Assembly: GCA_029936885.1 (NCBI GenBank)
Contig: JAPYRR010000002.1
Location: forward strand, 1 to 61,152
Reading direction: 5' to 3'
Source: Fidelibacterota bacterium
GTDB taxonomy: Bacteria > Fidelibacterota > Marinisomatia > Marinisomatales > UBA1611
DNA length: 61,152 bases
In this document: positions 8,965 through 52,319 of the stretch, piece after piece
How positions within the stretch are numbered: position 1 is the stretch's first letter
How the letters are laid out: each line of letters starts with the position of its first letter
The notes under the pieces: model-generated
The model's database searches: none
Told to the model about the DNA's origin: nothing
The model's input: the letters and a program-made list of their open reading frames with translations, nothing else
Program-made: the position numbers and the translations under genes

Positions 8965-10080
8965 ATGGATAATTTAAAAACGGCCGTTCTTTTGTTGCAG
9001 GACGGTCGTTTTTTTAATGGTAAAATATTTGGATCAGAGGGTGAAACTATCGGCGAAGTCTGTTTTAACACAGGCATGTCTGGTTACCAGGAAATTCTGA
9101 CTGATCCATCTTATTGTCGTCAAATCGTAACCATGACATCTCCCCACATTGGCAATACCGGTGTTAATCCTGATGATATTGAATCTAATCGAATTCAGGT
9201 TGCGGGATTTGTCATCAAAGAAGAAACAATCATTCCGTCTAATTGGCGATCCACCCAATCCATTGGTGATTATTTAAAAGAACAAAAGATTGTTGGGATC
9301 CAAGGCGTGGATACGCGTGCAATCACGCGCCACATTCGGAATCATGGCGCCATGAATGGCATCATTTCTACAATTGATTCCGATCTTGAAAGTCTAAAGA
9401 AAAAATTGTCCCAAGCACCAAACATGACTGGATTTGATTTAGCGAAAGAAGTCACGTGTCAAAATCAATATTCATGGTCTTCGATCAACCAATCAACCAA
9501 TCAATCAATCAATTTTAAGGTTGCGGCATTAGACTATGGAATTAAATATAATATTTTAAGACTCTTGGAAAGGAATGGATGCGAAGTAACTGTTTTCCCT
9601 GCTCAAACTTCCGCAAGAAAAATTTTGGATTTTAATCCGGATGGGGTTTTTTTAAGCAATGGTCCAGGCGATCCGGCGGCTGTGTCTTATGGGATTAAAA
9701 CTGTTAAAGAAATACTAGGAAAGAAACCCATTTTCGGGATTTGCTTAGGTCATCAAATATTGGCCTTAGCCTTAGGTGCAAAAACGTTTAAACTAAAATT
9801 TGGGCACCGCGGCATTAACCATCCTGTAAAAAACTTGGAGACGGGTCAAGTAGAAATCACCAGCCAGAATCATGGCTTTGCGGTGGATTTGGATTCGCTT
9901 CCGGCAAATGTGGAACCGACTCATATGAATCTGAATGATAATACATCTGCAGGAATCCGGTGTGATGAATTAAAAGCATTCTCGGTCCAATATCATCCAG
10001 AGTCAAGCCCGGGACCCCATGACAGTCGATACCTTTTTCAACAATTTATTAATATGATGGAATATGCCCAGAAGAACTGA
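8965..10080 (+). CDS. carA: carbamoyl-phosphate synthase small (glutaminase) subunit
   Basis: GATase catalytic block GICLGHQ and C-terminal HPE are present. It overlaps carB by 17 nt. Confidence 0.95.
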
Positions 10081-40991: not shown

Positions 40992-41773
40992 GTGGAATCA
41001 AACAGTCATAAAAATATTGCCATTGTTGGTGCGGGAAATCTTGGGCAGGCACTTGCAAATGGTCTGGTTAAATCAGGCGTCTTTTCTGCCGAAAATATTA
41101 CATTAAGTCGGCGGACGACTTCAGAATTATCATCTTTCGAAGAAAATAATTTTAGAGTTACCAATCATAATTCAAAAGCCGTGGATGATAGTGATTTAAT
41201 TATTATTGCAGTTGGACCACAGGACGCAACACCCGTTTTGAATTCTATTAAGAAAAATCTGAAACCGGAAAAACAAATTCTTATTTCTACTATGACTGGT
41301 GTTTCCATAACGTCGATTCAAAAAGTTGTTGGTCAGCACATTCCAATTGTTCGGATTATGCCTAACACACTGTCTCTATTTGCGAGTCTATGACGTGCAT
41401 TGCTGCAAATGACGAACATTCCGATTCACTGGAAATTGTAAAGAATGTATTTGATAAATTGGGCAAAACATTAATTGTTAAAGAGAATTTGATTGCGCCT
41501 GCTACGGCTCTTTGTGGTTCCGGATTAGCTTTCTTTCTTCGCGCAGTTCGGGCAGCGTCTCAAGGAGGGACAGAAATTGGTTTCCATGCAGAAGAAGCAA
41601 TCTTGCTTGCAGCCCAAACAGCTCGGGGTGCTGCATCTTTGACCCTTCAATCTGAAATGCACCCGGAATCAGAAATTGATAAAGTGACCACGCCGAAAGG
41701 CATTACCATTTCCGGTTTGAATGAAATGGAGCATCAGGGATTTAGTTCAGCAATGATTCGGGCGATTGTTTGA
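40992..41773 (+). pseudogene. proC: pyrroline-5-carboxylate reductase, interrupted by a 1-nt frameshift near 41370
   Basis: Two adjacent ORFs (40992..41393 and 41390..41773) together give a full-length ProC. Frame 1 reads ..RIMPNT then nonsense; frame 2 continues VSICESMTCIAAN. Restoring one C after ACA C (41370) would give the conserved MPNTPVSI... block. Confidence 0.75.
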
Positions 41774-41906
41774 TCAGCCAATAAAATTGATACGCTTATT
41801 AAGGAATCTTAAAAAATGCAATTCTCGGTATTGGCATCCATAATATTTATGCATAAGATTGGTCATGGAATTACAAAATATCTTTCGGTGGAAGCAGTCC
41901 TATAAC

Positions 41907-41966
41907 ATGAATCAGTTAAACACTTTCGTAAATAATAATAATTTAAGTGGGGGCGAAGCTTTGTAA
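41907..41966 (+). CDS. Asn-rich leader peptide MNQLNTFVNNNNLSGGEAL (asnB attenuator)
   Basis: A 19-codon ORF found by hand, with 6 Asn codons including AAT x4 at 41931-41942. It is followed by a competing antiterminator and terminator directly upstream of asnB. The sequence is cross-checked against the antisense track ORF 41912..42112. Confidence 0.6.
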   Translation: MNQLNTFVNNNNLSGGEAL

Positions 41967-41986
41967 CCGGAAGGAGAAGCTTTAGT

Positions 41987-42026
41987 AAAAACCCCCAAGG
42001 ATTTTAATTCTTGGGGGTTTTTTTTT
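41987..42026 (+). terminator. intrinsic terminator of the asnB leader
   Basis: AAAAACCCCCAAG - GATTTTAATT - CTTGGGGGTTTTTTTTT has an 8-bp GC-rich stem extendable by A/U pairs and a T9 tract. It ends 21 nt before the asnB ATG. Confidence 0.8.
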
Positions 42027-42047
42027 ACATTAATAAGGAAAAGAATT

Positions 42048-43637
42048 ATGTGCGGTATATTTTTATACAAAGGACAAAAACTAAATTGGGAGTCGTTGGA
42101 AGGTGATATCAATCTGATACGCTACCGAGGTCCTGATAATACACACCATGAAATGATTGGGAATGATGTGCTATTTTCCTTTCACCGCTTGGCAATTATG
42201 GGGACGACAGAAAGGGGTGACCAACCCATGAAGCATCCTAATGATGATTCACTTACTCTGATCTGTAATGGAGAAATTTATAATTATAAAGATCTGGCTA
42301 AAAAATACAATTTTAATTTGGTAACCGGTTCTGACTGTGAAATTATTTTACTTTTATTTAAAAAATTTGGTATTGAAAAAACAGTCCAAGAATTGGACGG
42401 TGTTTTTATGTTTGTGATTCTTGATGATGGTACAGGCCAACTTTTCGCGGGCCGGGATCCCATGGGCGTTCGACCCGGATTTATGGGTCGTGATGGAGAA
42501 GAAATCATGATAGCTTCAGAAGCAAAACCACTCATAAAATATTGCAAGGAAATTTCTCCTTTCCCTCCTGGGACTTGGTGGCATTCCGAAAAACCAAATC
42601 ACTTTAATTCATTTTTTCTATATAATGGAATTCAGATTCAAGAGAAAACTGAAGAAGACATTTGTGTTAAAATTAGATCTTTATTAATAGAGTCTGTTAA
42701 AAAGCGGCTCATGGCAGAACGGGAAATTGGATGTCTCCTATCCGGCGGATTGGATTCAAGTTTGATCTCTGCTTTGGTGAATAAATATTATGAGGGACCA
42801 AAACTCAATACGTTTACCATTGGACTTCCAGGGAGTACTGATCTTGAATATGCACAAACTGTTGCGGATCATTTGGAGACGAACCATCACCAAATCGAAG
42901 TGTCAGAGTCGGATTTCCTGAATGCCATTGAAACAGTGATTTACAATATTGAATCTTATGATACAACCACTGTTAGAGCCAGTGTGGGCAATTATCTCGT
43001 CTCCAAATACATTTCAGAAAATTCGGATTGCAAGGTAATCTTTAATGGCGATGGCGCCGATGAAGCGTGTTGCGGGTACGTTTATTTAAAGAATGCACCC
43101 ACAGCGGATGCGCTCCAAAAAGAAAGTGAAAAACTGGTGAAAGAAATTCATTACTTTGATGTCCTTCGATCGGATCGGAGTATTAGTTCAAATGGATTGG
43201 AAGCGCGAACGCCTTTTTTAGATAAAGCATTTGTGAAATATTATCTTTCAATTCCTGCTGAATTAAAATCATTTAATGGCATTAACCGATTAGAAAAACA
43301 TCTTTTAAGAAAAGCATTCGAGAGTCAAAATCTTTTGCCAGACGAAGTATTATGGCGTAGGAAATGTGCCTTCTCTGATGGTGTCAGTGCCAAAAAGAAA
43401 TCTTGGCACCATATTATACAAACATTTGTTGATGCAAAAATATCGGATGATGAATTTGAACAAGAGCAAAAAAAGATTAATCATTGTATGCCAATCTTAA
43501 AAGAGAGCTATTATTACCGAAAAGTGTTTGAGTCTCATTTTGGTGGACATGAAGAATTAATTCCCCATTTTTGGATGCCAAATTGGACAGATGTAATTGA
43601 TCCATCAGCACGAGAATTAGATAATTATCAGGAATAA
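42048..43637 (+). CDS. asnB: asparagine synthase (glutamine-hydrolysing)
   Basis: 529 aa with N-terminal MCGI (Ntn catalytic Cys2) and the PP-loop LLSGGLDSS. Confidence 0.93.
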   Translation: MCGIFLYKGQKLNWESLEGDINLIRYRGPDNTHHEMIGNDVLFSFHRLAIMGTTERGDQPMKHPNDDSLTLICNGEIYNYKDLAKKYNFNLVTGSDCEIILLLFKKFGIEKTVQELDGVFMFVILDDGTGQLFAGRDPMGVRPGFMGRDGEEIMIASEAKPLIKYCKEISPFPPGTWWHSEKPNHFNSFFLYNGIQIQEKTEEDICVKIRSLLIESVKKRLMAEREIGCLLSGGLDSSLISALVNKYYEGPKLNTFTIGLPGSTDLEYAQTVADHLETNHHQIEVSESDFLNAIETVIYNIESYDTTTVRASVGNYLVSKYISENSDCKVIFNGDGADEACCGYVYLKNAPTADALQKESEKLVKEIHYFDVLRSDRSISSNGLEARTPFLDKAFVKYYLSIPAELKSFNGINRLEKHLLRKAFESQNLLPDEVLWRRKCAFSDGVSAKKKSWHHIIQTFVDAKISDDEFEQEQKKINHCMPILKESYYYRKVFESHFGGHEELIPHFWMPNWTDVIDPSARELDNYQE

Positions 43638-51881: not shown

Positions 51882-51898
51882 ATTGTGAAATTAACATT

Positions 51899-52305
51899 GA
51901 GTTGGTCGGATGGTTACTCCTGGCCTGCGTAAGCAGTCTAGGGGAGGAAAGTCCGGGCACCGCAGAACGGGATGCCCCATAATGAGGGGAGATTCGCATT
52001 AGCGAATCATGGAAAGTGCAACAGAAAGTAAACCGCTCTAGATGAGTTATGGGCTTGCCCAGAGTTTGTCGAAGAGTAAGGGTGAAAAGGTAGTGTAAGA
52101 GACTACCAGATTCTGAATAAATTCAGAATGCTTGTAAACCCCATCCGGTGCAAGATCGAATAGTCTCCGAGATGTTGTTCGCATCGTTGAAGGAGCGGGT
52201 AGATTGCTTGACTACAATGGTAACATTGTAGCTAGATGAATGACCATCCCTTTAGTTTTGAATTATTAAACTAAAGGACAGAACTCGGCTTATAGATCGA
52301 CTCAA
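51899..52305 (+). ncRNA. rnpB: RNase P RNA, bacterial type A
   Basis: Universally conserved GGAGGAAAGUCCGGGC (CR I) and ACAGAACUCGGCUUAUAG (CR V) are present. AGGGUGAAAAGGUAGUGUAAGAGACUACC is also present, and P1 pairing joins 51899-51907 to 52295-52303. Confidence 0.93.
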
Positions 52306-52319
52306 TTTTATAATATATT

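Follow-up and report, generated by a model that had tools for sequence, protein, structure and literature searches.

A probable asparagine-sensing leader-peptide attenuator upstream of asnB in the Fidelibacterota (Marinimicrobia)

Introduction

The region between proC and asnB in a 61,152-nucleotide stretch of Fidelibacterota DNA (the whole of which is referred to here as the window) poses the question of how an asparagine synthase gene might be made to respond to the supply of its own product. Leader-peptide attenuation is the textbook solution for the Trp, His, Phe, Leu, Thr and Ile/Val pathways, and the original prediction for this locus was of an attenuator of the same general type, in which a short open reading frame carrying a run of asparagine codons precedes a terminator and a competing antiterminator. 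We have examined the parts of this region, their distribution among related genomes and metagenomic contigs, and the structures that the RNA could form. Judging from the sequence and its conservation, we consider it very probable that the element is an Asn-sensing, ribosome-mediated transcription attenuator controlling asnB.

Results

Organization of the asnB leader region

The features of the leader region are as follows.

41831 to 41859, forward strand: predicted sigma-70-type promoter-like site (TTGGCA at 41831-36, a 17-nt spacer, and TAAGAT at 41854-59)
41865 to 41966, forward strand: leader ORF, long form, 33 aa, MELQNIFRWKQSYNMNQLNTFVNNNNLSGGEAL, with eight Asn
41907 to 41966, forward strand: leader ORF, short form from an alternative internal start, 19 aa, MNQLNTFVNNNNLSGGEAL, with six Asn
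41931 to 41942, forward strand: regulatory codons, four AAT (Asn)
41948 to 41953, forward strand: region 2, UGGGGG inside the ORF, the proposed 5′ strand of the antiterminator
41955 to 41983, forward strand: hairpin B, GAAGCUUU/GAAGCUUU (AAGCUU/AAGCUU) with a CC-GGAA-GG tip, holding the UAA
41964 to 41966, forward strand: leader stop codon, UAA
41987 to 42026, forward strand: intrinsic terminator, with a 16-bp stem (41987-42022) and T9 (42018-42026)
41992 to 41999 with 42010 to 42017, forward strand: core pairing of the terminator, CCCCCAAG with CTTGGGGG
41992 to 41997, forward strand: region 3, CCCCCA, in the 5′ arm of the terminator
42012 to 42017, forward strand: region 4, UGGGGG, in the 3′ arm of the terminator
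42035 to 42039, forward strand: Shine-Dalgarno-like AAGGA for asnB, recognized from the sequence
42048 to 43637, forward strand: asnB, glutamine-hydrolysing asparagine synthase B, 529 aa, the regulated gene in the proposal

A reading of the sequence bears out the positions originally given for the ORF, the four AAT codons, the UGGGGG, the stop-codon hairpin, and the terminator with its T9, which leaves 21 nt to the ATG of asnB (42048). Both the terminator and the stop-codon hairpin of that prediction were recovered, in the terminator scan and in the folds: the scan identifies a 16-pair stem at 41987-42022 that includes six G-C pairs, with a stem energy of -22.6 kcal/mol, and the minimum free energy structure of the 161-nt region contains both hairpins and has a z-score of -2.7 relative to dinucleotide shuffles. 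AAGGA-like sequences are present upstream of asnB in most relatives, and no gene has been called between proC and asnB in any of the public contigs.

The product of asnB scores above the cut-offs of two curated AsnB models in profile searches, with 501 bits against NF006949 (cut-off 499) and 364 bits against TIGR01536 (cut-off 267), and matches the NF033535 lasso cyclase model weakly, with 137 bits against a cut-off of 525. Identical AsnB proteins are encoded on nine metagenomic or metagenome-assembled genome (MAG) contigs. The nearest named homologues come from Candidatus Marinimicrobia, Neomarinimicrobiota and Fidelibacterota, which are names for one phylum of the FCB group, and a second protein search, started from a record whose label of Caldithrix abyssi is doubtful, returned only the same Marinimicrobia AsnB set.

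Promoter and start of the leader ORF

Scanning of positions 41770 to 42060 for promoters yields TTGGCA-17-TAAGAT, ending at 41859, as the sole promoter-like site, and no such site was found in this interval to the 3′ side of the terminator. The leader ORF was originally described as having 19 codons and starting at 41907. Its stop codon and its Asn run stand, but the start is probably not at 41907: the frame is open further upstream as far as an in-frame ATG at 41865, giving 33 aa; an ATG occupies the position of 41865 in all close-clade variants and the long frame is open in 18 of 18; and the codon at 41907 is GTG in two sub-lineages (the L006 and L065 groups), both of which retain the upstream ATG. 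These comparisons suggest that 41865 is probably the start, with initiation at the internal ATG or GTG 42 nt downstream being possible. The 14 N-terminal codons of the long ORF show no third-position bias (variable sites 8, 7 and 10), and a second frame is also almost always open among the close-clade variants across this segment. The choice between the two starts has no effect on the stop codon, the G-run or the Asn run.

The ATG at 41865 lies 5 nt after the -10 box, and this layout (TTGnnn-17-TAnnAT-5-ATG) is kept in all 19 of the distinct close-clade upstream variants. Because a gap of this length puts the ATG at the expected start of transcription, the leader mRNA may be leaderless; no clear Shine-Dalgarno sequence was found for the leader ORF.

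Conservation and genomic context in the Marinimicrobia

Twenty-one asnB loci of the Marinimicrobia (Fidelibacterota), made up of 10 full-length genome loci and 11 AsnB clusters, were chosen irrespective of whether a leader was present. The element occurs in 16 of them and is absent from the other five sampled lineages. It is found in seven of the genome loci, where AsnB is 77-85% identical, and is lacking from three in which the identity is 63-64%; among the AsnB clusters, nine of 11 have the leader, reaching down to 66-70% AsnB identity, by which point the primary sequence of the leader has largely changed. The order of the parts is common to the 16 loci (Asn-rich ORF, G-run within the ORF, stop-codon hairpin, C-run terminator, asnB), such that the conservation anticipated among asnB orthologues extends for each of these elements down to 66-70% AsnB identity. 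The spacing is also constrained, with 48-54 nt from the leader stop to the start of the T-tract and 11-28 nt from the T-tract to the asnB ATG in the 16 representative lineages, and a G-run whose final G is 8-11 nt from the stop codon in every lineage. The codon phase of the G-run varies, being AGU GGG GGC in the window and GUG GGG GCU in lineage L101, which argues that the constraint is on the RNA and not on the peptide.

Three features by which attenuators of this class are recognized can thus be found at these loci: a short ORF in the 5′ leader, flanked by the promoter-like site and the first structural gene, a layout seen in 16 lineages; an excess, within that ORF, of codons specifying the amino acid that the downstream enzyme produces; and an intrinsic terminator between the ORF and the gene, with no promoter after it.

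A covariance model (R1) based solely on the close clade recovers each of the distant-clade leaders at full length, with E-values, which are rough, of 4e-6 to 5e-3. It reports one true copy in the window and no convincing match at asnB loci without the leader, the best of these being a minus-strand match in L106 with E = 0.44. A scan of metagenomes with a pattern that left the G-run unconstrained recovered 30 true copies, all of which have both the G-run and the terminator, and asnB is the next gene in 29 of the 30. The exception (L067) is on a contig of 1.5x coverage that diverges directly after the terminator and is without asnB; this contig is probably chimeric.

The same comparisons bear on the simplest alternative, that the hairpin and T-tract are merely the terminator of the upstream proC gene and the Asn-run ORF a chance AAT microsatellite. 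The proC gene does end at 41773 on the same strand, and trinucleotide slippage alone could give rise to runs that vary in steps of three nucleotides. However, the upstream neighbours vary among the lineages and include proC, a divergent thrA, a divergent sulfatase, PPDK and cytochrome c, which argues that the terminator is not that of proC; the unit of leader, terminator and asnB persists when another gene lies upstream or when the upstream gene has the opposite orientation. In the window, 214 nt including the conserved promoter-like site and the ORF separate proC from the terminator, and the 11-28 nt between the T-tract and the asnB ATG provide no room for a promoter. The concern that this might be a proC terminator followed by an asnB promoter is therefore not borne out, the promoter-like site being upstream only, and we regard such an explanation as extremely improbable.

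Asparagine enrichment of the leader peptides

Asn makes up 22-33% of the leader peptides as compared to 5.6% in the long ORFs of the window, an enrichment of 4- to 6-fold for which the P values of the individual peptides range from 1e-5 to 8e-3. The run of codons is not by itself significant, since (AAY)4 occurs once in the 61-kb window against an expectation of 0.63, the one match being the leader run; this is within chance, and the case rests instead on the context of the run and its conservation in relatives. In the close clade the run has three to six codons that are exclusively AAT or AAC, and across lineages the runs extend from two to seven codons. The enrichment is maintained in lineages whose peptides are otherwise unrelated and whose Asn codons are interspersed, and the leader peptides are both Asn-rich and different from one another (...NNNNLSGGEAL, ...NNNNNPKGVKAL, MIKNNFKINNFNNANQFGMGFLI, MILFTDNSNRNNINANNIGAGESV, MRYMIALNNNNNNNANGFGVGAPV and MNHLNYINTLINNNANNICVGNVV, and further ...FVNNNNLSGGEAL, ...FINNNNNPKGVKAL and MRQNILFNNNINNANKFGTGCLT). 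The C-terminal part of the peptide recurs as SGGEAL, or as G-x-G in the distant lineages.

The recurrence of these C-terminal residues, together with the conservation of the ORF, could be taken to indicate a functional small peptide, such as a precursor for an AsnB-like amidotransferase, with the terminator doing nothing more than ending its transcript. Enzymes resembling Asn synthase do have peptide substrates in lasso-peptide pathways, and the weak match to NF033535 is in keeping with this idea. Against it, the enzyme scores above the curated AsnB cut-offs and well under those of the cyclases, no protease or exporter genes accompany the locus and its neighbours vary, and asnB is left to the 3′ side of the terminator without a promoter of its own. 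Moreover, apart from their Asn richness the peptide sequences diverge almost completely, and the G-run is conserved in differing codon phases. A role for the peptide itself is thus very unlikely, only slightly less so than a proC terminator.

Alternative structures of the leader RNA

An alignment of the 16 lineages by MAFFT with the clades mixed was out of structural register, RNAalifold keeping only four pairs, and the clades and lineages were therefore analysed separately. In the distant clade, five pairs of the terminator stem have double compensatory changes. An additional hairpin of this clade (hairpin A), located after the Asn codons and before the G-run, likewise has double compensatory changes (CG to UA and CG to AU), and one of them links the synonymous third position of an Asn codon with a non-synonymous site. 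The close-clade alignment contains no double compensatory changes, its sequences being too similar. A hairpin on or around the stop codon is predicted in most lineages and is built from unrelated sequences, including GAAGCUUU in the window and UGUCUCA/UGAGAUA, UCCUGU/ACGGGA and GUGUAA/UUACAC elsewhere.

Several observations point to a specific antiterminator between the G-run of the ORF and the C-run of the terminator. The minimum free energy fold of the nascent RNA pairs these two segments in all 16 lineages, and the duplex energies, which range from -7.8 to -16.2 kcal/mol, are better than those of every upstream control window. GCGGGGG or UGCGUAGGG serves as region 2 in those lineages that have CCCUCGC(A) in the terminator arm, and cognate duplexes have a mean energy of -12.6 kcal/mol as compared to -11.5 kcal/mol for non-cognate ones (permutation p about 0.02). 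The helix is short, with 5-8 bp. An anchored, ungapped alignment gives 66.7% of cells paired, against 66.3% in shuffles, and because the core G:C pairs are invariant these covariation statistics neither support nor reject the helix. The covarying stems that were expected for the element are thus found for the terminator and hairpin A, in the distant clade, but not for the antiterminator, which is indistinguishable from the shuffles. Taking these findings together, we think it likely, with less assurance than we have for the attenuator as a whole, that the specific pairing of G-run and C-run is real.

The predicted effect of ribosome position was examined by folding the window's leader with segments masked. 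When the ribosome occupies the first or second AAT and the polymerase has passed the terminator loop, the minimum free energy structure is the UGGGGG:CCCCCA helix enclosing hairpin B, at -17.0 kcal/mol; when the ribosome is placed at the stop codon, no structure but the terminator is available. A stall at the third AAT masks part of the G-run, and one at the fourth masks most of it. The proposed geometry, in which stalling frees the G-run and termination of translation masks it, is therefore upheld in the predicted folds for the first two AAT codons and for the stop codon, and less so for the third and fourth AAT. The terminator begins 21 nt to the 3′ side of the leader stop; judged by standard footprint sizes, the G-run but not the terminator would lie within the footprint of a ribosome whose A site is occupied by the stop codon.

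At -30.4 kcal/mol, the terminator conformation is favored by 13 kcal/mol over that of the antiterminator (-17.0 kcal/mol). With so large a difference the choice between the two would have to be kinetic, as is likewise the case in the classical attenuators.

A trpE leader of similar design

A second unannotated leader is present in the window, upstream of trpE on the minus strand, with trpG and trpD following trpE. Its features are as follows.

34522 to 34454, minus strand: Trp leader ORF, MIDINTNNYYSWYWFFSHEGVS, with two Trp codons
34420 to 34392, minus strand: terminator of the trpE leader, ending 7 nt before trpE

A GGGGUUU within this ORF, 7 nt before the stop, pairs with AAACCC of the terminator and encloses a stop-codon hairpin. 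The trpE leader serves as an internal control for the asnB proposal. Because it is of like design, the organism appears to use the same scaffold for the textbook attenuated trp pathway as well. The promoter scan does not support a leaderless geometry for the trp leader, and a Thr-type leader was looked for before thrA and none was found. A terminator-like hairpin near position 9009 was dismissed as it lies inside the carA coding sequence.

These two cases raise the possibility that the Fidelibacterota share a modular attenuator scaffold whose specificity is set by swapping codons. Its parts would be an ORF that starts at or within a few nt of the 5′ end, a G-run located within the ORF some 10 nt ahead of the stop, and a stop-codon hairpin bridging to the C-run of the terminator, with a fixed distance of about 50 nt from the stop to the T-tract. 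The scaffold is seen for Asn (asnB) and Trp (trpE) and may serve other pathways too, and the asnB version would be the first asparagine-specific leader-peptide attenuator. We offer this broader reading tentatively, and put its chances at somewhat below even.

Discussion

The arrangement of the asnB leader suggests the following mechanism. The transcript would arise from a promoter situated immediately 5′ of the leader ORF, its start probably coinciding with the ATG at 41865 or adjoining it, and we infer that the ORF is translated while the RNA polymerase advances. When Asn-tRNA(Asn) is plentiful the ribosome would reach the UAA at 41964, cover the G-run (41948-53) and melt the stop-codon hairpin; with the G-run covered, the terminator (41987-42026) would fold and transcription would end 21 nt before asnB. 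When Asn-tRNA(Asn) is scarce the ribosome would come to a halt early in the Asn run. The G-run, left uncovered, would pair with CCCCCA in the terminator's 5′ arm, and the hairpin between them would draw the two strands together. The terminator could then not form in time and the polymerase would read into asnB.

An alternative that retains the leader and the terminator is that they constitute an attenuator with no asparagine signal, which sets a constitutive low level of expression or responds to a protein, a small RNA or general translation stress, the Asn richness being a by-product of AT-rich DNA. The much greater stability of the terminator relative to the proposed antiterminator, the lack of covariation support for the latter, and the occurrence of a single (AAY)4 match at a frequency within chance are all compatible with this. 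It does not readily account for the 4- to 6-fold enrichment in Asn, which is seen in every lineage, even those with unrelated peptides and interspersed Asn codons, nor for a close-clade run that varies between AAT and AAC alone, the linkage to asnB in 29 of 30 metagenomic copies, or the presence of Trp codons in their place in the like-designed trpE leader. We consider it unlikely, if less so than either of the alternatives discussed above, and favor attenuation in response to the charging of tRNA-Asn.

If this is correct, then the element adds a new amino-acid specificity, Asn, to textbook leader-peptide attenuation, and the mechanism operates in an abundant and uncultured marine phylum in which gene regulation is essentially unstudied. 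The cells would monitor the charging of tRNA-Asn, and hence use AsnRS, an enzyme that must be present if Asn-tRNA charging is to reflect free Asn, and would tune de novo synthesis of asparagine to its supply. The R1 covariance model provides a search model with which these leaders can be annotated in metagenomes, and the ratio of terminated to read-through transcripts could report asparagine limitation from metatranscriptomes.

Comparison with known systems

No asparagine-codon attenuator and no asnB leader peptide were found in Rfam 15 or in the full-text literature searched, which takes in few of the subscription journals. In searches of the leader region with E-values up to 10, the best Rfam matches are His_leader with 26.4 bits (gathering score 49) and Phe_leader with 17.8 bits (gathering score 55), both of which rest on the terminator. 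Across the whole window the gathering score is reached by RNase P alone, and four distant loci gave no gathering-level match. Neither the Rfam leader families (His_leader, Phe_leader, Trp_leader, Thr_leader, Leu_leader and Bacteroid-trp) nor the T-box attain their gathering scores. The expectation of a new member of the class in a non-enterobacterial lineage is in agreement with the absence of Rfam and literature matches, and the element is phylum-wide rather than local.

The closest class is that of the enterobacterial leaders trpL, hisL, pheL, leuL, thrL and ilvL (RF00513, RF00514, RF01859, RF00512, RF00506). As in these, a short 5′ ORF carries many codons for the amino acid that the pathway makes, the first gene is immediately preceded by an intrinsic terminator, and an alternative pairing through the 5′ arm of the terminator is predicted that would be set by ribosome position; a codon run of three to seven is shared with the his and phe leaders. 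The Asn leader differs in its amino acid (Asn), gene (asnB) and phylum (Fidelibacterota, or Marinimicrobia), and no sequence or covariance-model match connects it to the enterobacterial leaders. It also differs in that region 2 falls within the ORF, 8-11 nt from its stop, that a stop-codon hairpin separates regions 2 and 3, that the close clade has no 1:2 anti-antiterminator, and that the leader ORF may be leaderless.

Within the FCB group, the Bacteroid-trp leader is an Rfam family derived from comparative genomics of the Bacteroidetes and is an attenuator of the leader-peptide type. Its functional counterpart in the window is the trpE leader (34522-34392, minus strand), whose design is shared with the Asn leader, the amino acid of Bacteroid-trp being different from that of the latter. 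No match to Bacteroid-trp was found around either the Asn or the trpE leader at E-values up to 10.

Control by asparagine supply is achieved by other means elsewhere. The Asn-specific T-box leaders of the Firmicutes (RF00230) sense uncharged tRNA directly, are about 200 nt or more in length, and involve no translation. The signal of tRNA-Asn charging, the read-through of a terminator and a target gene concerned with asparagine supply would be common to both systems; in contrast, the Asn leader is about 160 nt, has an ORF, and has no T-box match. In E. coli, asnA is subject to AsnC-dependent control, in which a protein transcription factor acts at the promoter. This too is asparagine-responsive control of an asparagine synthetase gene, as is proposed for the Asn leader, but it has no leader ORF or terminator and its target is asnA, not asnB.

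A further parallel is with the mycobacteria, in which leaderless polycysteine short ORFs are Cys-responsive attenuators (bioRxiv 10.1101/834739). An ORF rich in one amino acid, positioned at the 5′ end of the transcript and controlling the matching biosynthetic genes, is the design that the Asn leader appears to share with these. The Asn leader is distinguished from them by its phylum and its amino acid, by a leaderless start that is predicted, and by a canonical intrinsic terminator with its probable antiterminator.

Predicted start of the leader transcript and an extra hairpin in the distant clade

The promoter predicted ahead of the Asn-rich leader ORF that precedes asnB (41831-41867 in the window, and at the corresponding position in the close-clade loci) has its -10 box 5 nt upstream of the start codon (ATG) of that ORF. 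All 19 of the 19 sequence variants share this spacing, which suggests that the leader-peptide mRNA is leaderless.

The distant-clade loci (L091-L104) contain an additional hairpin, hairpin A, of the form (U/C)GCCAA...UUGG(C/U)(A/G), which is located downstream of the Asn codons and about 15-30 nt 5′ of the G-run (the proposed antiterminator strand). Compensatory changes are present in hairpin A among these loci; the window's own clade does not have it. The 3′ arm of hairpin A has a slight overlap with the antiterminator strand, so this hairpin may serve to block antitermination in part, as an anti-antiterminator, or to make the polymerase pause.

Doubtful records among the compared loci

The AsnB of L101 (GCA_017116675.1, labelled Caldithrix abyssi) has as its nearest relatives, at 77-87% identity, metagenomic proteins and proteins of Marinimicrobia MAGs, and the fliG and fliF genes flanking its asnB match those of locus L104; the taxonomic label may be wrong. 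L067 is a marine metagenome contig at 1.5x coverage with a complete copy of the leader and terminator. It departs from the other copies 14 nt past the T-tract, and where they have asnB it has an opposite-strand exonuclease-III-like ORF; the contig is probably a chimera produced during assembly.

The divided proC gene

Upstream of the Asn leader, proC (40992-41773) is present in the window as two ORFs (40992-41393 and 41390-41773) with an ATGA overlap, the break falling exactly between the NADP-binding and dimerisation domains. All five of the contigs shown for the window sequence have the two-ORF form, and the relatives L006, L009 and L014 have a single undivided ORF of 268-273 aa. The division may reflect a genuine frameshift, decay of proC to a pseudogene, or an enzyme made as two subunits.

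Other structured elements and a Trp leader before trpE

Two further structured elements lie on the plus strand:

51898-52308, plus: bacterial RNase P RNA class A (RF00010, 259.7 bits)
8970-9015, plus: terminator-like hairpin and T7 tract inside carA, within the 5′-terminal part of its coding region

The carA hairpin is probably coincidental, since the same sequence codes for a conserved LLQDGRFF motif.

A second leader region is found on the minus strand:

34522-34454, minus: unannotated Trp-codon leader ORF, MIDINTNNYYSWYWFFSHEGVS
34420-34392, minus: intrinsic terminator following the Trp leader ORF

The terminator ends 7 nt ahead of the trpE ATG (34384, minus strand), and trpE is followed by trpG, a gene for a GxxExxY protein, and trpD. 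Rfam gave no match for this leader and terminator (34522-34392, minus). GGGGUUU within the ORF is predicted to pair with AAACCC of the terminator, and the hairpin enclosed between them would contain the stop codon. The Trp leader before trpE and the Asn leader before asnB are thus of matching design.
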